Source: Gammaproteobacteria bacterium (GTDB taxonomy: Bacteria; Pseudomonadota; Gammaproteobacteria; GCA-001735895). Taken from it: DNA of 45,743 nt. A program made the translations under genes and the position numbers. Under the pieces are notes generated by a model. It saw nothing but the letters and a program-made list of their open reading frames with translations. It had not been told where the DNA came from and did not search any database. The DNA lies in the NCBI GenBank assembly GCA_024224415.1, contig JAAENK010000156.1:1-45743 (forward strand). The letters are read 5' to 3'. Positions 4,044 to 25,656 of this stretch are shown piece after piece (the stretch's first letter is position 1; every line of letters starts with the position of its first letter).

Positions 4044-4520
4044 ATGCCAGGTCGCAAAATACTTAATGCAGGAATGCTAGCTCTGTTACTGCTAGCTACC
4101 CCGGCAGCCACCTGTGCAGAAATCTATAAATGGATTGATGCGAATGGTAATACCGTTTACGGCAACAAACCGCCAAAAAATGCTGAACTGAAAAAAATAA
4201 CCGGCAAGATCAGCAGTTTTTCATCGGTCAATGTTGAGTCATTCGAGTACGATGCCAGCCTGGTAACCCCAGAACAGGTAAAAACCAAAACCGTGATTAT
4301 GTACTCCACCAGTTGGTGTGGATACTGCAAAAAAGCCGCGAAACATTTCAGAAGCAAGAGTATTCCTTTCAAAGAATACGATATAGAAAAATCGAAGAAA
4401 GCAGCCAAAGCCTACCGAAAACTCAAGGGACGAGGCGTACCACTCATCCTTGTTGGAAAGAAACGCATGAGCGGCTTCGACGCTCGAAGATTCGACCAGA
4501 TATACTACGGTAAAACCTGA
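4044..4520 (+). CDS. Exported glutaredoxin (NrdH-like) with N-terminal DUF4124 domain
   Basis: Signal peptide; EIYKWIDANGNTVYGNKPP (DUF4124-like); MYSTSWCGYCKKA CxxC; GVP cis-Pro motif. Confidence 0.85.
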   Translation: MPGRKILNAGMLALLLLATPAATCAEIYKWIDANGNTVYGNKPPKNAELKKITGKISSFSSVNVESFEYDASLVTPEQVKTKTVIMYSTSWCGYCKKAAKHFRSKSIPFKEYDIEKSKKAAKAYRKLKGRGVPLILVGKKRMSGFDARRFDQIYYGKT

Positions 4521-4532
4521 CAACTCGGGAGA

Positions 4533-4561
4533 TTGAAGGCGTCCTGAACATCACGTAAGAT
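4533..4561 (+). promoter_or_regulatory. Sigma70 promoter of tRNA-Pro
   Basis: TTGAAG-N17-TAAGAT ending 13 nt before the tRNA. Confidence 0.55.
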
Positions 4562-4574
4562 TCAATCCTCAAAT

Positions 4575-4651
4575 CGGGGTGTAGCTCAGCCTGGTAGAGC
4601 GCTGCCTTCGGGAGGCAGAGGTCGTAGGTTCAAATCCTGTCTCCCCGACCA
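4575..4651 (+). tRNA. tRNA-Pro (anticodon CGG)
   Basis: 77-nt cloverleaf; anticodon arm CTGCC-TTCGGGA-GGCAG; GGTTCAAATCC T-loop; encoded CCA. Confidence 0.95.
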
Positions 4652-4660
4652 GATATAATA

Positions 4661-5986
4661 TCACCGCCGCTCAAACACGGCCATCGACTCGACATGGGCA
4701 GTCTGCGGAAACATATCCATAACGCCAAAATGAGTTAATTCATAACCATTGTTACAGATAATTTTACTGTCACGCACCAGGCTGCTGGGCTGGCAGGATA
4801 TGTAAACTATAATGCGCGCTTTAAAGCGTTTGATTTGCTCGGCGATTTCCATCGCGCCGGAGCGTGGCGGGTCGAGCAAGATCTTGTCGAACTGCTGTTT
4901 CATCCAGGGCCAGTCGTTGTCGATTTGACTCAGGTCGGCGCTAAAATATTCGGTATTTTCGATGCTGTTCGTCTGTGCATTACTTTTGGCACGCTGTACC
5001 ATTGCCAGGTCGCCCTCAACGCCAGTTACTCTCTTGCATCCGCGCGCCATGGGCAGAGTGAAATTACCGAGTCCACAGAACAGGTCGAGCACCTGGTCTT
5101 CCGGTTCCAGCTGAAGTAATTTTAATGCCTGGGCTACCATCTGCTGGTTGATGTCGTTGTTAACCTGAACAAAGTCAACCGCGCTGAAGTTAACCCGGAT
5201 ATCTTCTTCGGGCAAAGGTGAAAATTGAAGTGATTGGTTTTCAGGAAACAAATTGCGAATAGAATCTGGACCCTTTGCCTGTAGCTGTAGATTGAAACCG
5301 GTTTGCTGGGCAAAGTCGGTTAATTTTTGCTGATCCGACTCCGACAATTCCTTCAAATGTCGTACCACCAGAATCACCCGATCATCATCGGCAGCGACCT
5401 CGATCTGGGGGATACTTTCGCGGGCATCAAGCTGTTCGATGAGTTCGGCAAGGTCTTGCAAGCGATGCCCTACTTCTGGGATTAACACTTCGCACTGAGA
5501 CATATCGGCCAAAAATGATGCGTTGCGTTCACGAAAGCCCACCAACACCCGACCTTTCTTGTGTACGTATTTCACGCCGAGCCTGGCCTTGCGGCGATAG
5601 CCCCATGGCTTTGAACGTAATGGCGGCAGAATATGGCTGGCTTCGAGTCCGGCGTGTTGCATCATGTCGATCAGGGTTTGTTGCTTGAACGCAACTTGAT
5701 CGTCGTTATCTAGATGTTGCAAGCTGCAACCACCGCAGCGATCAAAGGCTTCGCATTTGGGCTTCACTCTTTGGGCCACGGATTCAATTATTTCGATTGC
5801 CGTGGCCTGGTCAAATTTCTGGCTGGATTTTTGTATCTGTGCCTTAACCAGTTCACCTTTCAGGGCACCAAATACAAACACGGTCTTGCCATTTATATTG
5901 GTGATACCTCGACCTTCATGCGACATAGCTTCAATGCGCAGGGTTACCGACTCAGGTGATTGGCTACGCCGTCTTCGTCTCGCCAT
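4661..5986 (-). CDS. rlmD: 23S rRNA (uracil1939-C5)-methyltransferase
   Basis: TRAM N-terminus, C-x5-CGGC Fe-S motif, LDLFCGLGNF, LDPPRSGA, YISC, DMFPQTAHVES. Confidence 0.95.
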   Translation of the reverse strand: MARRRRRSQSPESVTLRIEAMSHEGRGITNINGKTVFVFGALKGELVKAQIQKSSQKFDQATAIEIIESVAQRVKPKCEAFDRCGGCSLQHLDNDDQVAFKQQTLIDMMQHAGLEASHILPPLRSKPWGYRRKARLGVKYVHKKGRVLVGFRERNASFLADMSQCEVLIPEVGHRLQDLAELIEQLDARESIPQIEVAADDDRVILVVRHLKELSESDQQKLTDFAQQTGFNLQLQAKGPDSIRNLFPENQSLQFSPLPEEDIRVNFSAVDFVQVNNDINQQMVAQALKLLQLEPEDQVLDLFCGLGNFTLPMARGCKRVTGVEGDLAMVQRAKSNAQTNSIENTEYFSADLSQIDNDWPWMKQQFDKILLDPPRSGAMEIAEQIKRFKARIIVYISCQPSSLVRDSKIICNNGYELTHFGVMDMFPQTAHVESMAVFERR

Positions 5987-5998
5987 TCGATACCACTC

Positions 5999-6772
5999 CT
6001 AAAGCTCGATCCAGGACTTTTCGAAAGCATGCAAATGCTCATGACCCAATTTAATCAGGGCGTTACGCACCATCTGGCATTCGCTTTGATACTGAGTTTG
6101 ATTAATACTGCCGCGGTTACGCTCATAGTTCAGGTAGATCAGATAAGTGTTCAGCACATCGGTTTCACCGTAGTCTCGGATCGACTTGATGTCGTCATCG
6201 AGATATGCATCCCAAACATTGTCACAACTCATATTCATCTTGCCGGGAAAACCACAGAGACTTGCGATTTCATCTAGTGGTGCATTGGCCTGAGATGAAT
6301 ACGCTGCGAGAACATCCATTAAGTCAGTATGACGCTGGTGATAACGATTCAAATAATTGTCGTCTCGAAAACTGCTATCACTGCTGCCATTCTCCCAGTA
6401 ATGTGCCGCATTGACAGGGTATAACAATGACCGGTAATGAATCACCGGTAAATCGAATCCGCTGCCATTCCATGAAACCAGGTCTGGCGAATAGCGTTCG
6501 ATACCACTGTAAAAACGTTGTAGTAAATCGGGCTCATCGGAAGCCAAATCGCCGAGCGACCACACTTTGAACTGATCACGACTGCGCAGCACTGCTGAAA
6601 TGCAAACCACTTGATGTAAATGATGCGGTAGAACCTCTGTATTTACCTGTTGTCGGCGCTTGTGGAATACCGCTTTAGCAACATCATCATCGGCCAAACC
6701 ATGCAGGTCATACAGGCGTCGACAACCGTCGATGTCGGGCACGGTTTTGATATCAAAAACTAAAACATTCAT
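5999..6772 (-). CDS. Predicted PolB-like 3'-5' exonuclease (DNA_pol_B_exo2 type)
   Basis: VLVFDIKTVPD, LVSWNGSGFDLPVI, HTDLMDVL, ETDVLNTY; sits between cysM and rlmD. Confidence 0.85.
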   Translation of the reverse strand: MNVLVFDIKTVPDIDGCRRLYDLHGLADDDVAKAVFHKRRQQVNTEVLPHHLHQVVCISAVLRSRDQFKVWSLGDLASDEPDLLQRFYSGIERYSPDLVSWNGSGFDLPVIHYRSLLYPVNAAHYWENGSSDSSFRDDNYLNRYHQRHTDLMDVLAAYSSQANAPLDEIASLCGFPGKMNMSCDNVWDAYLDDDIKSIRDYGETDVLNTYLIYLNYERNRGSINQTQYQSECQMVRNALIKLGHEHLHAFEKSWIEL

Positions 6773-6779
6773 TTAGAAA

Positions 6780-7664
6780 TTATTCGGTGGGGAATATATT
6801 TGCGGATAGATAACGGTCACCCCGGTCACATATCACAGTAACTATATGCGCATTTTCAACTTTCCGTGAGAGTCGAATTGCCGCTGCTACTGCACCACCT
6901 GACGAAATGCCACAAAACAGGCCCTCCCGAATTGCCAGCTGACGGGTCATTTCCTCGGCCTCGTCCTGCGACACATCAATAATGCGATCGACCTGACTAG
7001 CATCATAAATAGCCGGTACATATTCTTCCGGCCAGCGTCGAATGCCGGTAATCACCGAACCATCCTCCGGCTGCACACCAATAATTTGCACATGCGCAGC
7101 AGTTTCTCGAAAAAATCTGGAACAACCCATTATTGTCCCTGTGGTGCCCATTGAGCTGATAAAATGGGTAATCTCCTGGTTGGTCTGCCGCCAAATTTCG
7201 GGGCCTGTAGTTTCATAATGTGCTCTCGGGTTATCCACATTAGCGAATTGGTCCAGCACCTTTCCTTTGCCCTGAAGCTGCATTTGCAGGGCCAGGTCTC
7301 TAGCACCCATCATACCCTGTTGCTGAGTCACCAGAATAATTTCGGCGCCATAAGCTCGCATTGCAATCTGTCTCTCGCCGGTCATATTATCCGGCATAAT
7401 CAATATCATGCGATAACCGCGTGTCGCGGCCACCATCGCCAGGGCAATACCGGTATTACCACTGGTGGCTTCTATTAAAGTATCCCCCGGTGCGATTTCG
7501 CCACGCATTTCGGCATTATTTATCATACTGTAGGCAGGTCTGTCCTTTACCGACCCAGCCGGGTTGTTACCTTCCATCTTGAGAGTAATTTGATTGCTCG
7601 AACCTGCACCCAGGCGTCGCAATGACACTAACGGCGTGTTTCCTATATAATCTTCTAAAAACAT
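6780..7664 (-). CDS. cysM: Cysteine synthase B
   Basis: IGNTPLV, EGNNPAGSVKDRPA (PLP Lys), EATSGNTG, MGTTGT, GIRRWP, CDRGDRYLS. Confidence 0.95.
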   Translation of the reverse strand: MFLEDYIGNTPLVSLRRLGAGSSNQITLKMEGNNPAGSVKDRPAYSMINNAEMRGEIAPGDTLIEATSGNTGIALAMVAATRGYRMILIMPDNMTGERQIAMRAYGAEIILVTQQQGMMGARDLALQMQLQGKGKVLDQFANVDNPRAHYETTGPEIWRQTNQEITHFISSMGTTGTIMGCSRFFRETAAHVQIIGVQPEDGSVITGIRRWPEEYVPAIYDASQVDRIIDVSQDEAEEMTRQLAIREGLFCGISSGGAVAAAIRLSRKVENAHIVTVICDRGDRYLSANIFPTE

Positions 7665-7787
7665 GGTATTACCGTCAATCTGGGCGGTGTTGGATTTTCT
7701 GTCAATGGGTTTAAGTATCCGTATATTTTACTGTAATGGTGAATTGCATACCATGTGATTTGAATCCAGATTGAAGGTGAAATAAAT

Positions 7788-9791
7788 ATGAACATGAAGT
7801 TGTCCTTTTCGACAGTTCGCAGCATATCTGGTTTGTTGGTTTGCCTGACCATATTTTTAGCAACATCAATTAATGCACAGGACGTGACTACCGAGTCAGA
7901 TTTTTTCGAAGATGCACCGCTTATTCTCACCGCTTCAAGAATGAGCAAGCCACTAATGGAATCACCTGCATCGGTCAGTGTGATCGATCGGCAAATGATC
8001 AAGGCAGCCGGTATTCGTAAACTAGCAGATATTTTTCGGCTGGTACCCGGTTTTATTGTCGGTAACTTAAGTGGGAATACGCCGATAGTAACTTATCAGG
8101 GTCAAGGTGCTGTATTTGCACGACAAATCCAGGTTCTGGTTGACGGACGCTCAGTATTTATCCCCTCATTCGGTGGCGTCCCATGGGTCAATCTACCTCT
8201 ACTACTTGAGGATATCGAACGCGTTGAAGTTATTCGAGGTCCCAATGCGGTCACCTATGGCGCAAATGCGTTTCTAGCCACAATTAACATAATCACCCGT
8301 CACGCCACCGAGGATTTGGGTGCTCGCTATTCGCTCACTGCTAGCGATAGCACAAATCCCAATGTAAGAGACGCATATTTCAGACTGGGTTATCATTTTG
8401 ATGATATCGACTGGCGACTTAGTATCGGTACCCTAAAGGATGATGGCTTCGAGACGGTTAATGACTCACGGGAAACCGACAAGTTAAATTTTCGGCTCGA
8501 CTATCTGGCCAATAACAACCAGTTCTGGACCATTCAGCTTGGTACTAGCAATACGATTAGCGGCAAGGGTTCACCAGGCAGCGCGACCAATCAGGAACGT
8601 AACGAAGATGCTACTAATAGTTATCTCAATATTAACTGGGAACAGGTTCGAATCAGTAGTAGTACCAGTATTCGCTTAACGCATACCGAACAGAAGGTGA
8701 TTGATAATTATCAACCTGAGCCATTCTCGATTGGTCCTATCTCCAATGTAACGACCTTTATCGATTTTGACAGGTTATCAAACCGAACCGACCTCGAAAT
8801 CATTCAAACCGAAGAGTTCGACATTTTCCGCATAGTTTACGGTACAAGTTTTCGTGAAGATCGAGTCAAATCAATCTATTTACTCAATAGCAATGATTTT
8901 CATGATATTCATATTTCGCGTTTGTTTACCAGTATGGAATGGCGGTTTGCGCAAGACTGGATTCTCGATTTGGGCACTACACTGGAGGATTCCAGTATTA
9001 CCGATCAGGAGTATTCACCACGTTTATCGCTATTGCACAATTTAACCGAAAATCACATGCTCAGGTTTGTTGCCTCACGAGCCAAACGCAATCCCATTCT
9101 ATTTGAACACAGTGGTCTTACAATATTTTCTGCCAATGGGAATATTCCCGGTCCGGGGATGACTGATTTCGACATGAAGATATGGCAAGGCAATCCAAAC
9201 ATAGTACCCGAAGATCTGATTTCCTACGAAATTGGCCTTCGTAGTCAATATGCTGACAGTGCTATTTCCAGCGATGTAAAACTATTCAGCTACAGGATAA
9301 CGGACTATATTGACGAAGCTTCGTTTAACGAAGCCCATCCCCTTCTGGGTACTATCAGCGTCGGGACGTCAGAAAATGCCGATGGTTTTCGTGTCAACGG
9401 CCTTGAAGCTTCGTATAACATCACACCAATCAGCGATCTTGACATCAAAACCGGTGTTAGTTTTGTTAGTATAGATACTGAAAACAGCGACATTAAAGAG
9501 TCGTATCCAGAAGCTTCCGCGTTTATTACCGCACAATATGAATGGCAGTCGAAACATAGTATTTCGGCTAGTTATTATTATGTAGATGAAATGATATGGC
9601 TCCATACCCCCAGTAACACAACGATACCATCTATTAACAAACTTGATTTGAGATATTCTCATTTACTGGATGAATCGAGTGAAACCAGGATTGAAATAAT
9701 CGGCCAAAATATGCTGGAGGATTATATCGATAGTCTTCAGGAAAATATCAACGAAAGAGTTTACCTGTTAAGGATATCGGGCGGTTTCTAG
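7788..9791 (+). CDS. TonB-dependent outer-membrane receptor
   Basis: Signal peptide; plug motifs LTASR...SPASVSVI, RLVPG, VLVDGR, DIERVEVIRGP; beta-strand-like C-terminal part ending in Phe. Confidence 0.88.
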   Translation: MNMKLSFSTVRSISGLLVCLTIFLATSINAQDVTTESDFFEDAPLILTASRMSKPLMESPASVSVIDRQMIKAAGIRKLADIFRLVPGFIVGNLSGNTPIVTYQGQGAVFARQIQVLVDGRSVFIPSFGGVPWVNLPLLLEDIERVEVIRGPNAVTYGANAFLATINIITRHATEDLGARYSLTASDSTNPNVRDAYFRLGYHFDDIDWRLSIGTLKDDGFETVNDSRETDKLNFRLDYLANNNQFWTIQLGTSNTISGKGSPGSATNQERNEDATNSYLNINWEQVRISSSTSIRLTHTEQKVIDNYQPEPFSIGPISNVTTFIDFDRLSNRTDLEIIQTEEFDIFRIVYGTSFREDRVKSIYLLNSNDFHDIHISRLFTSMEWRFAQDWILDLGTTLEDSSITDQEYSPRLSLLHNLTENHMLRFVASRAKRNPILFEHSGLTIFSANGNIPGPGMTDFDMKIWQGNPNIVPEDLISYEIGLRSQYADSAISSDVKLFSYRITDYIDEASFNEAHPLLGTISVGTSENADGFRVNGLEASYNITPISDLDIKTGVSFVSIDTENSDIKESYPEASAFITAQYEWQSKHSISASYYYVDEMIWLHTPSNTTIPSINKLDLRYSHLLDESSETRIEIIGQNMLEDYIDSLQENINERVYLLRISGGF

Positions 9792-9797
9792 AACTGC

Positions 9798-10724
9798 ATG
9801 AAGGTGAATATTAAAACTGTATGGATTTCAATTTTAAGTATCACATTGTTGGTGATACTAATCGATTCCCCTGCGTCGACTGATATTAAAAAAACTATCA
9901 CTATTGTTAAAAGTAGTAACAACAGTTACTACAATCTGACAATCGACAGCTTGATCGAACGATCACCTAAAGACATTTCTTTCGAAGTTGTCCTTGCTGA
10001 TTCAAGCCATTTTAACAACTTGACGTTACTCAAAACTAATCCCGTCATCAGTCTTGGTAGCAAAGCCACTTCCCGGGTTCTTGGAAAATTCTCAGATCAA
10101 CCAGTAATAAGTTCTTATATCACCAATAATCAACTTCAAAGCCTTTCCCCGACGGCGACAAATCATTTTCCTGTTTTACTCGAGCAACCCTTTGAACGCT
10201 ATCTTGCATTTAGCCAAAAATTATTAAAACTGAACTCACTTGGCATTATCAACCGGCAACCGCAATTACTTACTCGCAGGCAGAAGATAATATTAACGCA
10301 ATTGAATTTAAATTTACGGCAATTTCAAACAGATAAGCCCGAAAGCCTGCTTAGAACTATCAGGCAATTAAAGAGTCAAAGTGATGCTTTGCTGATCCTG
10401 CCTGATCAAAACCTTTTCAATCGTAATACCTTGAAAGGCGTATTATTAACCAGCTATCGAAACCGTATACCTGTTATCAGTTACTCGCCAGCACATGTCA
10501 AATCGGGTGCACTGGCTTCGATATACTCGTCACCCGAAGATATTGGACATCATCTTGCCGATTTGCTTTCCCAATATCTGAGAAACAAGCTGAAACCAGG
10601 GCAAACCCCACAACTTGCACGTTATTTTTCGATTAGTATAAATAGTCGCGTTGCATATTCACTCGGATTAAGGCTGCCGAAGGAGTCAGACATAAGACAG
10701 TTCATCGACGAGACCTTACGATGA
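9798..10724 (+). CDS. Periplasmic substrate-binding protein (ABC_sub_bind-like) with no adjacent ABC transporter
   Basis: N-terminal hydrophobic segment; C-terminal DALLILPD...RIPVISYS...VKSGALAS...DIG...ISINSRVAYSLGL pattern. Confidence 0.75.
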   Translation: MKVNIKTVWISILSITLLVILIDSPASTDIKKTITIVKSSNNSYYNLTIDSLIERSPKDISFEVVLADSSHFNNLTLLKTNPVISLGSKATSRVLGKFSDQPVISSYITNNQLQSLSPTATNHFPVLLEQPFERYLAFSQKLLKLNSLGIINRQPQLLTRRQKIILTQLNLNLRQFQTDKPESLLRTIRQLKSQSDALLILPDQNLFNRNTLKGVLLTSYRNRIPVISYSPAHVKSGALASIYSSPEDIGHHLADLLSQYLRNKLKPGQTPQLARYFSISINSRVAYSLGLRLPKESDIRQFIDETLR

Positions 10725-13456
10725 ACAGACTTGGAATAAAGTATCAAATACTCGTAATTACATTCATTCCCGCATTCTTGATCGATGTTTTTTTTACATA
10801 TTCACATATTACAACCAGTATTTCCCAGGCGCAGGAGTTACTTCAAGCCAAAGGGCAAATAATTTCAAAACAAATTGCCGGTGCTTCCGAGTTCAACCTG
10901 TTTTCGGGTAACGATAAGCAAATCCAGTACATGCTTGATCAGACTATCGATACCCACGATATAATTCTTGCCGCAGCTTACAATCTTGAGGGTGACCTGA
11001 TCGCCGAATCAATGTCAGATATTTACAGTGCGAACGAATCGATTGATTACTTTTATTTTCATCAGGCAATCCTCTCCGAAAGCATTGCTGTTTCAGATGT
11101 GTTTTCTCCAGACCAGATTGATGGCTCACTCAACCAGACCATCGGTTGGGTGCATTTATATATTTCCAGGCAGCAACTCGATGAAACTAAAGCAAACGTA
11201 ATCCGCGATTCAATCATATTCTTTGTCATTGTTCTGATCATGACCCTGGTTCTTACTACCATTATTAGTCGAGGCATAACCTCGCCAATCTTCAAACTCA
11301 TGAATCATTTAGGACGTGTAGAAACCGGATATCTTGGTGAGCTGATTGAGCCGGTTGAAGAGAACGAAATCGGCGCGGTGCAACGTGGTTTCAATCGTAT
11401 GACCCAGTCTCTGTCAATTAACCGGAAGCATTTAAATGACCGAATTCAGCAGGCCACTCAGCAACTTAGTGAAGCAATAACCGACCTCGAAGCAAAAAAC
11501 AGAGAGCTTGGCTTTGCGCGTGATGAAGCACAAAATGCCAATCGCATAAAATCCGAATTCCTGGCCAATATGAGCCATGAGATTCGCACCCCGATTAATG
11601 GTATCAAAGGTTTCATCAGCCTGATGGGGCAGTCGGATCTAACCCCACAGCAGAAACGCTACGCTGACATTATTCTCAAATCGACGAATGACCTGACTAG
11701 TATCATCAACGAAATTCTCGACTTCTCCAAACTGGAATCTGGCAAACTACAAATTATTGAGGATGACTTTAATCTGTATGAAATCATCGAACAAACCCGA
11801 GATATCCTGTTCATTAATGTTATTAGTAAAAATATCGATTTGATATTAATAATTTATAGTGACACGCCGAAACTTGTCTGTGGCGATAAACTACGCCTCA
11901 AGCAAATCCTGCTTAACCTGATGGGTAATGCCATTAAATTTACCGATCAGGGACAGGTCGTGGTTCGAGTTGCGCTCGAACAGGCGTCGAATAATGAGGT
12001 GGAAATATTAATCACTGTTGAAGATACCGGTATTGGCATAGCGGATCAGGATCAGGAGTATTTGTTTACTGCATTTAGCCAGGTTGAATCAGCCGCTAAC
12101 CGACGCTACTCCGGTACTGGCCTGGGACTTGTAATCTGTAAGAATCTGGTGAATTTAATGGGTGGTGAAATAACCATGCAAAGTACCTATGGCGAGGGGT
12201 CAACATTTTCCATACACCTGCCTTTTTCGATTCCATTAAACATCAAACCCGAAGATCCAACTCCGGCACTAGATTTGACTACATTTATTTTCGCTTCACA
12301 AAAAACCTGCTTACAGGAAACCCAATCTTTATTTGATCGCACAGGTGTAGCAACCGAAGGTTTGTTAATTGATGCTACACAATCAACCGATCAAATCAGA
12401 GAAATAATTCAGAAAAATCTGAAATTTATCGACATCATTGTTTTCGATCTACGCCATATGACACAAAATCTTGATGACATCATCTATGATCAATTTATTG
12501 CTAATCATCGAGTGCTGGTAATGCATTATGATCAGAGCTTGATACCCGATCTTAAACTGAGTGACTACGAATTTGTCTCGAATATCACTACCAGCTCTAA
12601 TCTGACAAAGTTATTGGAGTCGATCCCTCAAAGCAACTATCCACAGCAATCCATAGAAACAAAACAGGTACTGCCTCAACAGAGTAAGAAAGTCCTGCTG
12701 GTGGATGATAACCAGATAAATTTAAAACTCGCTGCCGAGCTAGTTCGATTGTGGGGGCATCATGCAACAGAGGCCAGTCACGCCAGGGCGGCAATGGCTT
12801 TGTATCAGCAACAGAATTTTGATCTAATCATCCTCGATATACAAATGCCTGAAATCGATGGTACTACATTATTGAAAATGATGCGGGAAGAAAAATCCGG
12901 CAATAAGACACCATTTGTTGCGCTGACCGCGAACATTATGCCCGAAGAAGCTGAGCGGTTATTAAACCTTGGTTTCGATTATTATCTGAGCAAACCTATC
13001 GACGAAGAAAAATTCAAATCAATACTCGATGGCTCGTATTCTATTGATAAGTCAGAAAAGTCAATACCAATTGAAGGTGACAACCTCGACTTAAATAACC
13101 TTAGGTCGGTCGATGTAGAAAAGTCATTGATACTTTCCGCGAACAACCATTCACTGCTAATACAGATATTCGAATTATTGTTACGTGAGGTACCCACTCA
13201 CCAGAAACAGCTGGAAGAAGCAATGGAGATCTCGGATCAAAAAAAGATTTCTATGATATTACACAAGATCCATGGCATTACCTGTTACGCCAGCCTGCCT
13301 AAACTACGGCAACTTGTTCTAGCAGCTCAGCATCACTCACCTGGTAGCAGCATTGAATCATTTGATGACGGGATCCGAGCGATTATTGCTGAGCTGTATG
13401 TCATAAAAATAGAAACTGAAACTCTTATTGCAGAATACTCAGAACTGGTCGATTAA
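10721..13456 (+). CDS. barA: Tripartite hybrid sensor histidine kinase BarA/GacS
   Basis: Two TMs around a periplasmic domain, HAMP, FLANMSHEIRTP, N/G boxes (NAIKFT, DTGIG, GTGLGL), REC (LLVDD...LDIQMP...KP), HPt (LHKIHG); lies between acpS and cysM/rlmD. Confidence 0.85.
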   Translation: MNRLGIKYQILVITFIPAFLIDVFFTYSHITTSISQAQELLQAKGQIISKQIAGASEFNLFSGNDKQIQYMLDQTIDTHDIILAAAYNLEGDLIAESMSDIYSANESIDYFYFHQAILSESIAVSDVFSPDQIDGSLNQTIGWVHLYISRQQLDETKANVIRDSIIFFVIVLIMTLVLTTIISRGITSPIFKLMNHLGRVETGYLGELIEPVEENEIGAVQRGFNRMTQSLSINRKHLNDRIQQATQQLSEAITDLEAKNRELGFARDEAQNANRIKSEFLANMSHEIRTPINGIKGFISLMGQSDLTPQQKRYADIILKSTNDLTSIINEILDFSKLESGKLQIIEDDFNLYEIIEQTRDILFINVISKNIDLILIIYSDTPKLVCGDKLRLKQILLNLMGNAIKFTDQGQVVVRVALEQASNNEVEILITVEDTGIGIADQDQEYLFTAFSQVESAANRRYSGTGLGLVICKNLVNLMGGEITMQSTYGEGSTFSIHLPFSIPLNIKPEDPTPALDLTTFIFASQKTCLQETQSLFDRTGVATEGLLIDATQSTDQIREIIQKNLKFIDIIVFDLRHMTQNLDDIIYDQFIANHRVLVMHYDQSLIPDLKLSDYEFVSNITTSSNLTKLLESIPQSNYPQQSIETKQVLPQQSKKVLLVDDNQINLKLAAELVRLWGHHATEASHARAAMALYQQQNFDLIILDIQMPEIDGTTLLKMMREEKSGNKTPFVALTANIMPEEAERLLNLGFDYYLSKPIDEEKFKSILDGSYSIDKSEKSIPIEGDNLDLNNLRSVDVEKSLILSANNHSLLIQIFELLLREVPTHQKQLEEAMEISDQKKISMILHKIHGITCYASLPKLRQLVLAAQHHSPGSSIESFDDGIRAIIAELYVIKIETETLIAEYSELVD

Positions 13457-13464
13457 AATCCAGG

Positions 13465-13845
13465 CTAGTTTGACTCGAGTATAACCATGGCCACAACATA
13501 GTTTTTCTCATCTGACAGGGAAACAAACACATTGGAAACCTGGCATTGCTCGACTAGCTTCAAAGCAGCATGGTAAAAGCTTAGCTGTGGCTTACCGTGA
13601 GCATCATTACTCACTTCAATCGACTTGTAGTTAACACCCTGATCAAACCCGGTACCAAGCGCCTTGGCGGCTGCCTCCTTGGCTGCAAAACGCGTGGCAA
13701 GAAAAAGCGCTGGATGAGCACGTCGGTGAAACTGCTCAAACTCTGCGTCGGTTAAAATTCGACGCGCAAAACGTTCACCGTAGTGCTCGTACAAATTGGA
13801 AAATCTCGTCGTTTCGGCAATATCTACACCTATGCCGGCAATCAT
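13465..13845 (-). CDS. acpS: Holo-ACP synthase
   Basis: [30 protein letters not shown]. Confidence 0.96.
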
Positions 13846-14570
13846 GCGCGCGCTTCTATCATCAGGCGTTTCATTTCTCGAACTGAATTTCCGAGCCCAT
13901 TGAATACTGCATCGGCAATAATTGCATGCCCGATATTAAGTTCACTAACCAGCGGGTTACGGGCAATTGCCTTTACATTGTGATAATTCAAACCGTGCCC
14001 GGCATTAACCTGTAAGCCTTTGCCATGAGCGTGAGCAATGGCCTGATTTATTTCTTCTAATAGCCTGTCCTGCTCGGATTCGTTAGTCGCATCGGCGTAG
14101 TGACCGGTATGAATTTCAATGCAGTGAGCACCACATTCAACGACGGCATCAATTTGTTCAGCGTTGGCGTCTATAAACGGCGACACACGCGTTCCGACAG
14201 CAGCGAGACGGTCGCAGGCCTGCTTAACCTGGGCAAATTGTCCAACCACATCCAGTCCTCCCTCGGTGGTCAATTCCTCACGTTTCTCCGGCACCAGGCA
14301 AACATCTTCGGGTTTAAGTTCGCAGGCTAACACGAGCATTTCCTCAACCACCGCAATCTCCAGATTAATCTTTGTCTGTACTAGTTGCTTGAGCAGCAAA
14401 ACATCACGTTCCTGGATATGACGTCGATCCTCGCGCAAATGTAATGTAATGGAGTCAGCGCCTGACTGCTCGGCAATTTGTGCAGCGTAAAGCGGATCAG
14501 GATAGCGCGTACCGCGTGCCTGTCGCAATGTTGCTACATGATCGATGTTAACACCCAAAGTGATCGACAT
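13842..14570 (-). CDS. pdxJ: Pyridoxine 5'-phosphate synthase
   Basis: [50 protein letters not shown]. Confidence 0.97.
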
Positions 14571-14572
14571 AT

Positions 14573-15271
14573 TTATTTCCATTTATTAATTTGAAGATAT
14601 ATATCGCGAGATTTTAATCTTTTCCCCTGTAAGTTAAAATCAATAATACAACGCATGACTGTTTTGGCGATTTGCAAAACCTCACTATTATCAAATCGAT
14701 TGTGATTCCAGTCGATGATTAAACCGCCACTAATGGCATTGCCATGTGCTTTGTCGCAGCGTAGAAAGCCTCTGCTAGCCAGAAAATGGTAATACAACTG
14801 AGCCTGGACAGGATCACCGCTTTCGGCATCGAGAGTCATTTCTGGTAAATATCCCAATATCCACATTGCAGATCGTTCGAATCGTCGGAGGCATTGCTCT
14901 GTATCCGGCAGATTTATATTTTCCAGCAATTCACCATACTGGGCGAATAGTTCCGGGCTGGATTCCTGTTGAGGTAAAAAAGCTGCTATGAGCTCGTTAA
15001 CGTAGAGCAACGGCAAATACAGCTGCTCATTAATCGGTATAGGTTTGCCATCGATAGCAGTCAGGGTTTTTAATTCCTGGCGCCCACTCCAACTTACCAT
15101 GAGCTGGCAAAAAGGTTGATAGAGTCCAGTGGACTTGCCACTTTTACTGCCTTTGGCAAGCAAACTGATACGACCATATTCGAGGGTCATTAAGTCTAGA
15201 ATTAGACTGGTATTCCGCCAATCACGTCGATGCAGCAGGTAAGCAGGTTGATCAGTAACTCTGATCTGCAC
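14573..15271 (-). CDS. recO: DNA repair protein RecO
   Basis: [30 protein letters not shown]; follows era. GTG start at 15271 is inferred. Confidence 0.92.
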
Positions 15272-16154
15272 TGGAATACCCAAAGGCAGCCAACGAGCGC
15301 TCATCGTCAGCCCAGTCCTCCCTAACCTTCACCCACAGTTGCAAATAGACCTGCCCATCGACCAATTTCTCGATATCATGCCTGGCCAGACTACCGGTTT
15401 GCTTGAGTTGACGGCCTTGCTTGCCAATAACTATGGCCTTTTGTGATTTACGTTCCACCCAGATAGTTGCTGAAATTCGAGTCAGATCCGACTCCTCCTT
15501 GTAATGGTCAACACTGACGGTAATTGAATAGGGTAATTCCTGTGTTAATACCCGAAACAACTTTTCGCGCACTATTTCAGCAACAATAAAACGCATCGAC
15601 TTATCGGTGAGCTGGTCATCTGGAAACTGTGGTACCGCTATCGGTAAGTAGCTGATGATAAGTGCTTCGAGTCTATCCAGGTTTTCCTTTTCGAGCGCAG
15701 AAACCGGCACAATTTCAAAATCGGGGACTATTTCAGAAATCTTTTGCATGACTGGCAAACAGGCTGTCTTAGTCATTTGATCAATTTTATTTAATACGAT
15801 AACGACATTGTTCCTACCAGCGACACGCTTGAGAATTTTGACATCATCACCATTAAAGTGACTAATATCGAGCAGCACACAAATCAAGTCGGCATCTGCT
15901 AACATACTGATTGCCGCACGATTCATATAACGATGTATGGCTTTTTGATTACTATCGTGAATCCCCGGTGTATCGACAAAGATACATTGATAGCTTTGCG
16001 TGGTTTTGATACCGAGTATTTGATGGCGAGTTGTTTGTGGTCGATGCGCGGTGATGCTTAATTTTTCACCAACCAGGGCGTTCATCAAGGTTGATTTACC
16101 AGTATTGGGCTTACCAATCAGCGCCACATAACCGGTTTGAAACGAATCATTCAT
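15252..16154 (-). CDS. era: GTPase Era
   Basis: GKPNTGKST, PQTTR, DTPG, NKID, KH motif IVIGKQG. Confidence 0.97.
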   Translation of the reverse strand: MNDSFQTGYVALIGKPNTGKSTLMNALVGEKLSITAHRPQTTRHQILGIKTTQSYQCIFVDTPGIHDSNQKAIHRYMNRAAISMLADADLICVLLDISHFNGDDVKILKRVAGRNNVVIVLNKIDQMTKTACLPVMQKISEIVPDFEIVPVSALEKENLDRLEALIISYLPIAVPQFPDDQLTDKSMRFIVAEIVREKLFRVLTQELPYSITVSVDHYKEESDLTRISATIWVERKSQKAIVIGKQGRQLKQTGSLARHDIEKLVDGQVYLQLWVKVREDWADDERSLAAFGYSSADQSY

Positions 16155-16822
16155 GAGGTCAGTTGCTCAAATGCTATGCCAGCAGCAACTTGTTCGGCTT
16201 TTTTTCGGCTACCGCCCTTGCCACTTGTTTCCACAGAAAATGCCGGCACCCGACATTTCACGGTAAAAACCTGGTCGTGAGCTTTACCCGTGGTTTGGAT
16301 CACTTCATAATTCGGCAAATCGCTTTGCTTGCCCTGTAGAAATTCCTGTAAGCGCGTTTTTGGGTCTTTTAGCGACTGAGTATCTGGCAATGTATCTAGA
16401 TAATCACGAAACAAAAATAAAACAGCATCTCTAGCCTGTTCAAAACTGCTATCGAGACACATTGCTCCGATTAATGCCTCGAGTACATCCGACAGAATCG
16501 ATGCCCGACGAAAACCCCCACTTTTTAACTCCCCACCACCAAGATGAATATACTCCCCGAGATTATTTTTCCGGGAAATCTCAGCCAAGGTTTCTTCTTT
16601 AACAAGCGAAGCGCGAATACGGCTTAATTCACCTTCATCGGCATCCGGCAATTGCTGGTAGATATATTGAGTAATAGCCAGGCTTAAAACACTATCACCC
16701 AAAAATTCGAGGCGCTCATTATTGTTGCCACGGGAGAAACTACGGTGGCTTAGCGCCTGATCGAGTAACCCGGTTTGCTTGAATCGATAACCTGAAATGG
16801 CCTGGAAAGTTTCCGGCTTCAC
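16151..16822 (-). CDS. rnc: Ribonuclease III
   Basis: NERLEFLGDSVL signature; dsRBD DPKTRLQE...KKAEQ. Confidence 0.97.
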   Translation of the reverse strand: MKPETFQAISGYRFKQTGLLDQALSHRSFSRGNNNERLEFLGDSVLSLAITQYIYQQLPDADEGELSRIRASLVKEETLAEISRKNNLGEYIHLGGGELKSGGFRRASILSDVLEALIGAMCLDSSFEQARDAVLFLFRDYLDTLPDTQSLKDPKTRLQEFLQGKQSDLPNYEVIQTTGKAHDQVFTVKCRVPAFSVETSGKGGSRKKAEQVAAGIAFEQLTS

Positions 16823-17196
16823 CGATCAATTACTACAGACTCGCTGAAAGCTCCCCCGATATACAGATTACCGACATAGTCATCACGGGTCTCATAGGTA
16901 ACCGTTACTGTAGTCTTACCATCCTTGCGTGACATTTTGACGTTTTCACGATATATAGTTCGTATATTATTAACATCTAATCTTCTATACATTTTATCCC
17001 AAATGGCGCGCTTCGATTTCACATCAATACTGGCATCTTCCTGTATCGATTTCAAAATCTCCTTAATTTGATAATTTTCGTAGTACATCGGAAACACCTT
17101 GAAAAAGGTGGTTAATAGAAACGCAAAAATAGCAATAATAGCTAGCCAGGTTGGTAGAGATAAACCTCTCTGGCTATGTCTGTTAATCTTGCTCAT
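16819..17196 (-). CDS. DUF4845 family protein
   Basis: QRGLS followed by a hydrophobic helix; conserved position between lepB and rnc; ATG at 17196. Confidence 0.8.
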   Translation of the reverse strand: MSKINRHSQRGLSLPTWLAIIAIFAFLLTTFFKVFPMYYENYQIKEILKSIQEDASIDVKSKRAIWDKMYRRLDVNNIRTIYRENVKMSRKDGKTTVTVTYETRDDYVGNLYIGGAFSESVVIDR

Positions 17197-17207
17197 AACA
17201 TCTAACC

Positions 17208-18038
17208 TCAATCTGATATACGTGTGCCTATTCTGGAAAGCTCCAGTCCGGTGCCACCATTCCTCCAATCCCAGTGCATCCATATCATAACAGCCTTTCC
17301 GACCAGATTCTCCTCTGGTACAAATCCCCAGAAACGACTGTCGTTACTATGATCCCGATTGTCACCCATAACAAAATAGTGACCGGAAGGTACAAACAAT
17401 TCACCGTCAGCACTGTATCGAACATCTGGATTGGTCATCATTGTATAGCTGGTTTCGCCTAATTCTTCGTTAAATACTTTGCATTTTGCCTTGATGTTGT
17501 CACAACCCTGATTAATGACAAGTTCGCTAGATTCACCCAAACCCTGATAAGTTTCCAAAAGCTGAGTTTTTACAAGTTTACCATTAACCGATAAACGGCG
17601 ATTGTAGTAACTGATATGATCACCAGGTAATCCGATAACCCGTTTGATGTAGTCCAGAGATTCGTCTTTGGGATACCTGAAAACTGCAATATCACCGCGT
17701 TTGGGTTTTTCACCGCCGGTTATTTCAGTATGTATTACAGGCAAGCGCAAACCGTAATCATATTTATTTACCAATATAAAATCACCAACAAGCAGGGTCG
17801 GCATCATTGAACCAGAAGGAATACGAAAAGGTTCATAAACAAATGAACGCAATATCATCACCGCCAGTAGCACCGGGAAAAATGATTTTGAATACTCAAC
17901 GATTATGGGATCGTGTACAGATTTACTGGTAGCTTCCTTCTGCCTTTGTCTGGCAAACATAAAGTGATCGATCAGCCAGATCAGCCCAGATCCCAGGGTA
18001 CCCAGAACCAGGAGAAATTCGAAATCAAAGTGAATCAT
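17208..18038 (-). CDS. lepB: Signal peptidase I
   Basis: EPFRIPSGSMMPTL, DYIKRVIGLPGD, MGDNRDHSNDSRFWG. Confidence 0.97.
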   Translation of the reverse strand: MIHFDFEFLLVLGTLGSGLIWLIDHFMFARQRQKEATSKSVHDPIIVEYSKSFFPVLLAVMILRSFVYEPFRIPSGSMMPTLLVGDFILVNKYDYGLRLPVIHTEITGGEKPKRGDIAVFRYPKDESLDYIKRVIGLPGDHISYYNRRLSVNGKLVKTQLLETYQGLGESSELVINQGCDNIKAKCKVFNEELGETSYTMMTNPDVRYSADGELFVPSGHYFVMGDNRDHSNDSRFWGFVPEENLVGKAVMIWMHWDWRNGGTGLELSRIGTRISD

Positions 18039-18064
18039 TAAGTCTAAAAACCTCTATTAATACG

Positions 18065-19861
18065 CTAGCCATCTACTCTTAATATGGCAAGAAAGGCATC
18101 CTGTGGAATTTCAACACTACCAACCTGTTTCATTCGTTTCTTACCAGCCTTTTGTTTTTCCAGTAACTTGCGTTTGCGAGTCGCGTCACCGCCGTAACAT
18201 TTTGCAGTAACATTTTTACGCAATGCTTTAACATTGGTTCTGGCGATAATATTGGAGCCAATTGCAGCCTGTATTGCCACATCAAACATTTGACGTGGAA
18301 TTAGTTCTTTCATCTTCGAGGCCAGTTCCCGACCTCTATAATCAGCGTTACCTCTGTGTACAATGAGTGATAACGCATCGACCTTCTCTCCATTGATCAA
18401 CACATCGAGCTTAACCAGGTTTCCCGCTTCAAAACGTAGGAACTCATAGTCAAAGGATGCATATCCCCGACTGACAGATTTTAATCGATCAAAGAAATCG
18501 AGTACAACCTCACTAAGGGGTAATTCAAAAACCAGTGAAACCTGGTTTCCGAGATACCGCATATCTTTCTGCAAACCTCGTTTTTCGATACATAAAGCAA
18601 TCACCGCACCTATATACTCCTCTGGTAGTAATATATTGGCCTGTATCACAGGCTCGCGGATTTCATTGATTTTATTAACGGGTGGTAAATCAGCGGGATT
18701 GTGAATATCTATCACCTCACCCGCAGTTGTTTCAATCTGATAGACCACGGTTGGCGCTGTGGTTATTAAATCTAGATCGTATTCGCGTTCCAGGCGCTCC
18801 TGCACGATTTCCATATGTAACATGCCCAGGAATCCACAGCGAAATCCAAACCCCAAAGCCTGCGAGGTTTCTGGCTCAAACTGTAGGGCTGCATCGTTCA
18901 ATTTGAGTTTTTTCAGAGCTTCGCGACAGTTTTCGTAGTCATCGGAACTCACCGGGAATAATCCGGCGAATACGCGGGGTTGAACTTGTTCAAAATCGGC
19001 CAGTGGCTGATCGGCCGGCTGTTGACTGAGGGTGATAGTATCACCAACCCGTGCCGATTCGATATCTTTGATACCGGAAATAATATAACCAACGTTTCCT
19101 GCCTGTAATGCCTCGGTAGCCTGTCGCTTAGGTGTAAATACACCAACCTGATCGACCAGAAACTCCCTGCCAGTCGACATCATTTTAATTTTCTGCTTCG
19201 GCCGAATACCACCTTCCATGACACGAACCAGAGTGATGACCCCGACGTAATTATCAAACCATGAATCAATAATCAGCGCCTGCGTCCTGTTGTCAGATGA
19301 TCCATGCGGTGCTGGCACCAGGGTGATCAACTGTTCAAGCAAAGCCTCGATACCAACTCCGGTTTTTGCACTGACTTCGATGGCTTCGGAAGCATCAAGA
19401 CCAATGATTTCTTCGATTTCGAGTTTGACCCGATCAGGGTCAGCAGCCGGCAGGTCAATTTTGTTCAATACTGGAATCACTTCCAGGTCGAGGTCAATCG
19501 CGGTATAGCAGTTAGCTACGCTTTGTGCCTCGACACCCTGCGAGGCGTCGACAATGAGCAACGCCCCTTCACAAGCGGCTAAAGAACGCGAGACTTCGTA
19601 GGAGAAATCTACGTGACCGGGAGTATCAATAAAATTTAGTGTATAGGTATGGCCATCCTTCGCCTTATATTTAAGCGATACGCTTTGCGCCTTGATAGTA
19701 ATACCACGTTCCCGTTCCAGATCCATGGAATCGAGTACCTGGCTATCCATCTCACGCTCACTCAAACCACCACAAATCTGGATAAATCGATCAGCAAGTG
19801 TCGATTTACCGTGATCGATATGCGCAATGATTGAGAAATTACGTATGTTTTCCATCCGCAT
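18065..19861 (-). CDS. lepA: Elongation factor 4
   Basis: [34 protein letters not shown]. Confidence 0.98.
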
Positions 19862-25011: not shown

Positions 25012-25656
25012 ATGAAAATTATACTACTGGGTCCACCCGGCGCCGGCAAAGGCACCATTGCCAAGGCACTCACACAATACGATGCCTCTGTGCAGATTTC
25101 CACCGGCGATATTTTACGTGCGGCGGTAGCGGCTGGCACAGAACTCGGTAAACAGGCCGAAGCGGCGATGAGCGCAGGTAATCTGGTTACTGACGAGCTG
25201 ATTATGGGTATTATGGAACAGCGTTTGCAGGAAGATGACTGTAAAGCTGGTTATCTGCTCGATGGCTTTCCACGCACGATTCCTCAGGCCGAAGCTTTGC
25301 AGGTGTTGCTCGAAAAAATGGGCGAAAAGCTCGATGCTGTGCTTGAATTACAAATCCCACGCGATGTGATTATCGACCGCCTGACCACACGTCGAACCTG
25401 CGCACAATGCGGCGAGATTTATAATGTGAAATCAAAGCCGCCTAAGGTTGACGGGGTTTGTGACGTTTGTGGTTCGAATGAAATCGTACAGCGCGACGAT
25501 GAAACGGTTGAAGCGATCAATAACCGCCTGGAGGTTTACCAGGCACAAACCGCGCCATTGTCAGCATTTTACCAGAATACAGGCCTGCTAGTCAGCGTAC
25601 AAACTTCAGATCTGAGTCCGGTAATGACGGCTTTAAAGCTCAAGATAGATAACTAA
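25012..25656 (+). CDS. adk: Adenylate kinase with 4-Cys zinc LID
   Basis: [28 protein letters not shown]...CDVC, QRDDE; GAGGAG RBS before the ATG at 25012. Confidence 0.96.

Follow-up and report, generated by a model that had tools for sequence, protein, structure and literature searches.

We found that three consecutive genes in a 45,743-nucleotide (nt) stretch of DNA from a Gammaproteobacteria bacterium (contig JAAENK010000156.1 of assembly GCA_024224415.1, forward strand; the whole stretch is hereafter called the window) encode a TonB-dependent outer-membrane receptor, a periplasmic binding protein of the PF04392 family and a hybrid histidine kinase of the BarA/GacS type. The arrangement is real and conserved, and in our best interpretation a binding protein provides the input of a BarA-type kinase, the TonB-dependent receptor in front being optional; we put the probability of this reading at roughly 0.6. 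According to this proposal, the three genes would form one operon which gives the BarA/GacS-type kinase an input made of proteins. The secreted PF04392 protein would bind a small ligand in its cleft and dock on the small Cache-like periplasmic domain of the kinase, which would set the His-Asp-His phosphorelay, feeding a UvrY/GacA-type regulator and, through it, a Gac/Csr output. Upstream of this pair, the TonB-dependent receptor would bring or hand the ligand across the outer membrane; it may widen the range or sensitivity of the sensor, and the pair could work without it.

All three genes are on the plus strand: the receptor gene at 7788..9791 (667 amino acids (aa); open reading frame (ORF) call, Pfam Plug and barrel domains), the binding-protein gene at 9798..10724 (308 aa; ORF call and Pfam) and the kinase gene at 10721..13456 (911 aa; ORF call, Pfam domains in the order HAMP-HisKA-HATPase-REC-Hpt). 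The ORF coordinates and junction bases agreed with the initial annotation of this locus, which had described three co-oriented genes with a 6-bp gap and an ATGA overlap: the last base of the receptor stop codon TAG is 9791 and the following ATG begins at 9798, leaving 6 bases, and the ATGA at 10721–10724 joins the kinase start to the binding-protein stop. The same annotation had stated that no ATP-binding cassette (ABC) permease or ATPase, TonB, or extracytoplasmic function (ECF) sigma/anti-sigma gene was adjacent. A profile scan with Pfam and NCBIfam, which covered 45 ORFs across the window, likewise detected no ABC permease, ABC ATPase, TonB/ExbBD or FecI/FecR-type pair; the sole ECF sigma factor among these ORFs was rpoE with rseABC (~21.5–24.2 kb), about 8 kb off.

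Several types of evidence were used to identify the kinase. All five Pfam domains (HAMP, HisKA, HATPase_c, Response_reg and Hpt) scored over their cut-offs, in keeping with the complete BarA architecture, Hpt included, previously claimed for it. Among 132 NCBIfam families, the BarA model NF008318 was the top match (545.3 bits; kinase residues 1–868, model positions 1–881 of 920), followed by TorS (399 bits), LetS (367), ArcB (288), RcsC (266) and EvgS (192). BLASTP against E. coli K-12 BarA gave 33% identity in a single alignment starting from residue 1, with 30% identity over the receiver and Hpt domains. The phosphorelay residues H286 (in SHEIRTP), D706 (in ILDIQMP) and H851 (in HKIHG) aligned with the E. 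coli BarA motifs, H851 being the residue which we take, from BarA, to be the phosphate-accepting histidine of the Hpt motif. The gene also occupies a characteristic slot, flanked by rlmD-exonuclease-cysM on one side and acpS-pdxJ-recO-era-rnc-lepB-lepA on the other. In E. coli K-12, we observed the order rlmD-barA-gudD; barA adjoins rlmD and stands alone between rlmD and gudD, consistent with the earlier statement that it lies beside rlmD without such partners. The best match in PDB for the cytoplasmic part of the kinase, by sequence, was 7z8n, labelled only “Histidine kinase”, which is presumably P. aeruginosa GacS; no chain described as GacS was present among the PDB sequence or structural matches of the kinase.

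A scan of 1.84 billion representative sequences yielded 150 best matches to the kinase, of which 30 (875–961 aa) were collinear with it from the N-terminus and were kept; the 120 left out were mostly 1100–2400-aa multi-domain kinases and fragments. BarA was the best model for all 30 collinear representatives (497–945 bits), one of which passed the family cut-off. In a second kinase tree (52 rows, quick IQ-TREE run, LG+G4, outgroups from E. coli only), a branch with a Shimodaira–Hasegawa-like approximate likelihood ratio test (SH-aLRT) value of 95 split E. coli ArcB, EvgS, TorS and RcsC from the rest of the tree. E. coli BarA was nested among the representatives on the same side of this split as the clade of the window kinase (support 100), which was sister, at 88, to the group with E. 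coli BarA. A placement outside the BarA/GacS clade had been named in advance as damaging to the proposal; the kinase instead groups with E. coli BarA. Judged by its architecture, family model, sensor homology, chromosomal slot, collinear relatives and tree position, we conclude that this protein is most probably the BarA/GacS-type kinase of its lineage. A second BarA-like gene may be present elsewhere in the genome.

The arrangement of the genes was conserved among related organisms. A profile made from 30 binding-protein relatives and searched in contigs of one genome per species identified 42 loci, and 36 of these (L001–L036) represented the chromosomal slot of the window with the same order of flanking genes. 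They came from uncultured Gammaproteobacteria, including the Olavius algarvensis Gamma 3 symbiont, and their identity to the window was 43–60% for the receptor, 35–53% for the binding protein and 47–71% for the kinase. The kinase gene directly followed the binding-protein gene in all 36 loci, some of the kinase genes ending at contig edges. The two genes overlapped by 4 nt in 32 loci (31 detected by script and L019 by separate inspection), a count that depends on our choice of the kinase start as the start codon nearest to the aligned position; the remaining four junctions showed a 1-nt overlap (two loci) or a distance of 34–36 nt (two loci). The receptor and binding-protein genes were 6–21 nt apart where both were intact. 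Because the order recurs in 36 related loci and the junction is kept to the base in most of them, the gene order is more than chance.

The receptor behaved differently. Its gene was present in 25 of the 34 loci that covered the region upstream of the binding protein and absent in the other nine. In L013 and L014, the spacer between cysM and the binding-protein gene encodes the last 16–24 receptor residues (E-values 1e-4 to 4e-4), and the spacers of L017, L018 and L020 have a weak match to the TonB box and plug start of the receptor (E-values 0.02–0.04). Since these spacers retain scars of the receptor, its absence is not ancestral and reflects deletion. Receptor presence and absence required at least four changes on the kinase tree (34 rows with known state; L013 and L026, with incomplete kinase genes, were left out). 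In the nine receptor-less loci, the binding proteins keep the 23 conserved sites that were checked, except for three changes in L026 and one in L030. The persistence of the pair after receptor loss suggests that the binding protein and kinase are a constrained core, and that the receptor is an add-on which travels with the binding protein. Thus, the neighborhood survey proposed for the triplet upheld the binding-protein/kinase pair in 36 of 36 loci and failed to uphold the receptor as a fixed member; the dedicated outer-membrane front end of the initial annotation is not obligate, as it was deleted repeatedly with the pair left intact.

Individual loci also showed rearrangements. In L019 (3875–12040), the receptor/binding-protein pair and a cysM fragment are duplicated in tandem before one kinase gene; with a DNA identity of 83% between the copies, the duplication has diverged and is no repeat created by assembly. 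The contig carrying it is labelled Polaribacter and has the gene content of the gammaproteobacterial window clade; similarly, L041 is labelled Enterobacteriaceae and has the content of Porticoccus. Both are probably mis-binned contigs. In the closely related L024 and L035, the receptor gene of the former (7897–9966) matches in two pieces and the binding-protein gene of the latter (4120–5077) is split over two frames; either the module is decaying in that lineage or the assemblies contain errors.

The binding protein matched the Pfam family ABC_sub_bind (PF04392) with 35.1 bits (cut-off 25.9) over residues 163–294 only, i.e., its C-terminal half. It has a hydrophobic stretch at residues 2–30 and no cysteine within the first 40 residues, and 288 relatives of it were present in the protein collection. 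An AlphaFold2 model (mean predicted local distance difference test (pLDDT) 88.2, predicted template modeling score (pTM) 0.83) showed the two-lobed alpha/beta architecture of a type-I periplasmic binding fold. The closest solved folds in a Foldseek search were the PF04392 members 3lkv (E-value 5e-14), CD0873 (6hni and 6hnj) and 3lft with L-Trp, and lower in the list were the complexes XylFII-LytS and LuxP-LuxQ (1zhh, 2hj9 and 5xsd being among the matches). Residues invariant in the family (N42, Y44, G87, Y107, T109, Q130, N208, S228–P231 and S244–P246) sit just past the beta strands of the model and would, in a fold that binds its ligand at the strand ends, line the ligand site. As to the nature of ligands, L-Trp, L-Tyr and L-Phe are those given for solved PF04392 proteins in Table 1 of PMC10443332. 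The usual partners of a PF04392 protein, a permease and an ATPase, were found neither among the 45 window ORFs nor, in the related loci, between the syntenic flanking genes; on this basis, we rejected the idea of a plain ABC uptake locus.

The proposed docking site is the periplasmic sensor domain of the kinase (residues ~29–160, encoded at 10805..11200 on the plus strand), located between two membrane helices; hydrophobic stretches at residues 4–30 and 156–188 flank ~130 periplasmic residues. The Pfam family sCache_4 scored 21.4 bits on this kinase, just below its cut-off of 22.1, and residues 1–203 had no match in PDB by sequence at E-value ≤ 10. A profile comparison by hhalign of the N-terminal 205 residues of 28 orthologues with residues 5–205 of E. 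coli BarA gave a probability of 95.8% (E-value 8e-9, 181 columns), and therefore the sensor domain was inherited rather than replaced. The AlphaFold2 model of the region (pLDDT 84.1) consists of a single Cache/PDC-like domain between two long helices. Two structural matches alone reached E-value ≤ 0.001, an integrative model of WalK with YycH, which was the best, and a LapD-type periplasmic domain; further matches were the sensor domains of WalK, KinD, CitA and DcuS. LapD-type periplasmic domains bind a protein partner.

These matches raise the alternative that the PF04392 protein is a ligand-free accessory, a fixed periplasmic modulator of the kinase in the way YycH/YycI act on WalK, with the receptor being an unrelated neighbor. 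We consider this very unlikely. Besides the two best structural matches of the kinase N-terminal model, it would agree with the restriction of the Pfam match to the C-terminal half of the binding protein and with the dispensability of the receptor; but the invariant residues at the strand ends lining the cleft fit a retained ligand site, the close spacing of the receptor and binding-protein genes where both are intact and their joint duplication in L019 are at odds with an unrelated neighbor, and the binding protein of a published system of the same gene order, the Pah system of Cycloclasticus, binds ligands (PMC10570129).

Our reading of a binding-protein input to the kinase was further examined with regard to loci outside the window clade. 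The six remaining loci (L037–L042) belong to Porticoccaceae, including the cultured Porticoccus litoralis DSM 25064, and have receptor, binding protein and kinase in the same order, located between pdxH and serA/serC-like genes. The Porticoccus binding protein (322 aa) matched PF04392 with 50 bits, and the kinase (887 aa) had BarA as its best model (482.5 bits), LetS at 426 bits over the full length, sCache_4 above the cut-off (37.2 bits) and an Hpt domain. Identities between Porticoccaceae and the window were low for all three proteins (24–28% for the receptor, 28–31% for the binding protein and 29–32% for the kinase); the binding proteins of the two groups aligned by hhalign over 277 columns with a probability of 100% (E-value 8e-42). 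In the 52-row tree, the kinases of Porticoccaceae diverge ahead of the node at which the window clade parts from the group with E. coli BarA. Genes upstream of the triplet in Porticoccus litoralis (L039:2031–6957) encode an MMPL/HAE3-type transporter, a LolA-like/DUF1329 protein and a 478-aa protein without a family match, neighbors that hint at the handling of hydrophobic compounds.

A search of plasmids with the binding protein (tblastn) identified three records, two of which were the Massilia plasmids NZ_CP012641.2 and NZ_CP103372.1. The units on these plasmids (L048:2012–8221 and L049:655–6884) adjoin conjugal-transfer genes and comprise a LuxR-type regulator, a CPBP intramembrane protease, a receptor (32% identity to the window receptor in the plug and 25% in the barrel), a binding-protein homologue annotated as hypothetical (28.8% identity over 73% of the query) and a HAMP/HisKA_3 kinase. 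Residues 18–223 of this non-hybrid kinase (509 aa) aligned with the sensor region of the window clade at 94.9% probability by hhalign (E-value 4.6e-8). Thus, the Massilia units share with the window the gene order, a homologous receptor and binding protein and the same kind of sensor region, and differ from it in the HisKA_3 non-hybrid kinase, the extra LuxR-type regulator and CPBP protease, the plasmid location and the host, which belongs to Betaproteobacteria; they are uncharacterized. They also bear out the earlier remark that similar receptor/binding-protein pairs occur before other kinases. Because the kinase paired with the binding protein in Massilia is of another class, the binding protein travels with the sensor domain and not with one kind of transmitter, and this co-occurrence of binding protein and sensor domain in two transmitter classes is the best indirect indication, from sequence comparison, that the two may be in contact.

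It is possible to view the same genes as an uptake system with a co-located kinase, in which a nutrient is imported through an ABC transporter encoded elsewhere, and the link to the kinase is either genomic only or part of a dual role of the binding protein. Some sugar-binding proteins serve both transport and signaling. The binding proteins of the PF04392 family are those of ABC transporters and its solved members bind aromatic amino acids, the receptor resembles plain transporters in having a TonB-box-like stretch and no signaling extension, and what was seen of the genome is one window of 45.7 kb. Nevertheless, this explanation appears unlikely, as no permease or ATPase gene was found in the window or in the syntenic flanks of related loci, the 4-nt overlap with the kinase gene is widespread and the binding-protein gene was never separated from the kinase gene, the pair persists where the receptor has been deleted, and the pairing recurs with a different class of kinase on plasmids.

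The distribution of the triplet also bears on its age. The initial annotation had proposed that a global regulator gained a dedicated front end, and this was not supported by our analysis: the two most divergent BarA lineages in the tree both carry the triplet, and for this reason it may be old. A broader, rather doubtful extension of the binding-protein input is that the Cache-like domain of the BarA/GacS family is in general a docking site for a binding protein instead of a direct ligand sensor, and that the unit is the ancestral input, which these marine lineages and Porticoccaceae would have kept and which enterics, vibrios and pseudomonads would have lost or relocated. There is room for such a scenario in the presence of the triplet in the two most divergent lineages with like divergence of all three proteins, in the Massilia units, where this binding protein and sensor domain are joined to a different class of transmitter, and in the best structural matches of the sensor domain, which include domains that we take to work via protein partners. 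If correct, it would account for the difficulty of finding a direct periplasmic ligand of GacS/BarA and would draw attention to orphan binding proteins as the missing input. BarA/GacS is at the top of the Csr/Rsm network, and the signal that reaches its periplasmic domain is an open question, a 2020 review being entitled “The Evanescent GacS Signal” (PMC7695008); in a term search of this review, “TonB” and “solute binding” did not occur and “periplasmic binding protein” occurred in the references only. As the kinase has a dedicated binding protein, coupled to it in translation in 32 of the 36 related loci, and a cultured carrier of a divergent copy exists in Porticoccus litoralis DSM 25064, the input of a BarA-type kinase becomes testable by ordinary genetics and binding assays.

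With regard to the receptor, Pfam matches to Plug (71.9 bits) and TonB_dep_Rec_b-barrel (88.1 bits) were accompanied by a signal peptide, a conserved TonB-box-like stretch, a plug from residue 56 and a C-terminus ending in GGF, i.e., in the aromatic residue F. No N-terminal signaling extension was found on the receptor, the plug following directly after the signal peptide. FecA-type signaling was rejected for the window receptor, which has no such extension and no adjacent anti-sigma or FecI-type sigma gene. The best NCBIfam model for both the window receptor (178.7 bits) and the Porticoccus receptor (189.2 bits) was the TOL_0244 family (NF053590); since both scores are far under its cut-off of 645, neither protein is an equivalog member of this TOL_0244/OmpS family. 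It has been reported that TOL_0244, which is likened there to Alcanivorax OmpS, is up sevenfold on the n-C28 alkane (PMC6304351).

A promoter-like element with a dyad around the −10 region was noticed in the spacer between cysM and the receptor gene (7727..7760, plus strand) and is a candidate promoter of the operon. The first half of the element (T[TC]TAC[TG]NNAA) was present in 23 of 29 spacers examined, and the full element with the dyad was matched by a regular expression in 15 of the 29, receptor-less loci included; most of the receptor-less loci retain the element. The inverted repeat at 7727–7760 is possibly an operator. A consensus scan for promoters and terminators did not list this site and gave no excess of sites over shuffles (11 versus a mean of 16.6).

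The synteny markers upstream of the three genes, all on the minus strand, were rlmD (4661–5986; NCBIfam RlmD, 575.8 bits), a PolB-like 3'-5' exonuclease gene (5999–6772; PF10108, 270.6 bits) and cysM (6780–7664; NCBIfam CysM, 512.4 bits). The exonuclease gene is kept between rlmD and cysM in the related loci, with 57–78% identity. Downstream, acpS, pdxJ, recO, era, rnc, a DUF4845 gene, lepB and lepA occupy 13465..19861, also on the minus strand (NCBIfam and Pfam). Other genes of the window included ectC (26–457) and doeA (1080–2261), separated by a 203-aa ORF (490–1101) which matches the C-terminal part only of the 326–330-aa EutC/cyclodeaminase models and may be a truncated gene, as well as a methyl-accepting chemotaxis protein with a Tll0287-like sensor domain (25653–27356, minus strand).

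A system of the same layout has been described in Cycloclasticus sp. P1, where the cluster encodes a 687-aa receptor (PahS), a 318-aa binding protein (PahP) and a 771-aa kinase (PahK) (PMC10570129; the gene table of pahS, pahP and pahK is also in PMC8547461). According to Wang et al. 2023 (PMC10570129), growth on polycyclic aromatic hydrocarbons requires these genes and the unlinked pahR. Co-immunoprecipitation, surface plasmon resonance, two-hybrid and Förster resonance energy transfer data placed PahP, which binds ligands, between PahS and PahK. PahR (215 aa) is annotated as “global regulator GacA”, and csrA is among its targets in chromatin immunoprecipitation. In the accessible text of that paper, “GacS” does not occur and the single match to “BarA” is the surname Barak in the references, and our full-text literature searches found no paper stating the BarA/GacS identity of a kinase with such a front end. 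An Atlas search for PahP relatives returned PF04392 clusters only, and the name Cycloclasticus was not present among the 120 listed of 158 matches to the Porticoccaceae binding-protein profile, nor among the listed relatives of the window binding protein.

These reports changed the standing of two ideas in the initial annotation. The relay from receptor to binding protein to kinase has an experimental precedent in PahS-PahP-PahK as reported, and the part that did not hold is the need for the receptor, which is dispensable. The link to BarA/GacS, presented as the novelty, is partly in print through the GacA annotation of PahR and the csrA target; what remains of it is that, in the text available, the authors never name the kinase GacS or BarA. 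The mechanism has thus been published for one organism, with the tie to GacA implicit there, and for this reason the surprise is limited. The hydrocarbon sensor of Cycloclasticus probably belongs to a wider family of binding-protein inputs to BarA-type kinases that extends beyond oil degraders, and in such a family the outer-membrane receptor would be an optional addition.

Another explanation is that the kinase is a specialized descendant of BarA with a narrow regulon, e.g., for the use of hydrophobic substrates, which does not drive Csr/Rsm small RNAs. A kinase score below the BarA equivalog cut-off could be understood in this way, and so could the contents of the window, where Rfam detected no Csr/Rsm RNA (two tRNAs were the only matches) and no gene for a cognate UvrY/GacA-type regulator was found. 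The closest receptor family (TOL_0244, OmpS) and the Cycloclasticus system are tied to hydrocarbon use in the literature, and the Porticoccus neighbors include an MMPL-type transporter and a LolA-like protein. However, the window kinase retains the ancestral barA position and the full phosphorelay, and in Cycloclasticus the regulator carries the GacA annotation and has csrA among its reported targets. A narrow function of this kind therefore seems improbable to us.

Several observations weigh against a binding-protein input to BarA as proposed here, and the probability given above takes them into account. The kinase score of 545.3 bits is under the BarA equivalog cut-off of 890. The first kinase tree (41 rows, E. 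coli references only) had open deep nodes and long branches, and the representatives of the 52-row tree were picked as collinear matches of the query, which favors BarA-like rows. Neither the regulator nor any Csr/Rsm RNA is encoded in the window. The binding proteins grouped in PF04392 are those of ABC transporters, and a transporter may be encoded beyond the 45.7 kb seen. A trans-envelope chain is not required, as shown by the quarter of the loci that have lost the receptor. Fusions of the binding protein with a kinase were not found at E-value ≤ 0.001 among 7991 longer candidates, which is weak evidence. In a distance-correlation (mirror-tree) test with 21 genomes, all protein distances followed phylogeny (r 0.90–0.94); the partial correlation of the binding protein with the periplasmic part of the kinase given the cytoplasmic part was 0.28 (11 of 2000 permutations as high), and that with the cytoplasmic part given the periplasmic part was higher, 0.47, i.e., there was no specific signal. 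Finally, PahK is 140 aa shorter than the window kinase and is said by the authors to lack a periplasmic sensor domain, whereas the window kinase has one. One might speculate that PahK is a BarA-type kinase annotated from an internal start, the difference between 911 and 771 residues being close to the first helix plus the periplasmic domain.

Comparison with known systems places the proposed input between several types of signaling. The window kinase has in common with BarA-UvrY of E. coli, GacS-GacA and LetS-LetA the architecture, the phosphorelay residues, the homology of the periplasmic domain and the rlmD neighborhood; it differs from E. coli BarA, whose gene stands alone, in the limited identity (33%) and in falling below the equivalog cut-off. 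In LuxP-LuxQ, TorT-TorS and XylFII-LytS, the first partner is a periplasmic binding protein that lacks transport genes and signals through docking on the second, a kinase in the membrane; torT adjoins torS in E. coli. The type-I fold of the binding protein is shared by the window with LuxP-LuxQ and XylFII-LytS; in contrast, the binding-protein families and kinase sensor domains of the three systems are other ones, and no outer-membrane receptor is part of the unit. Compared with FecA-FecR-FecI, the relay at this locus would pass via a soluble binding protein and a two-component kinase. The Pah system, compared by its published description, has the same order of receptor, binding protein and kinase as the window (687, 318 and 771 aa versus 667, 308 and 911 aa) and, like it, no ECF sigma factor; its regulator is annotated as GacA and its ligands are polycyclic aromatic hydrocarbons. 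Relative to that system, the new points are the identification of the kinase as an orthologue of BarA/GacS that has kept its ancestral position, and the finding that what stays constant is the binding-protein/kinase pair rather than the whole triplet.

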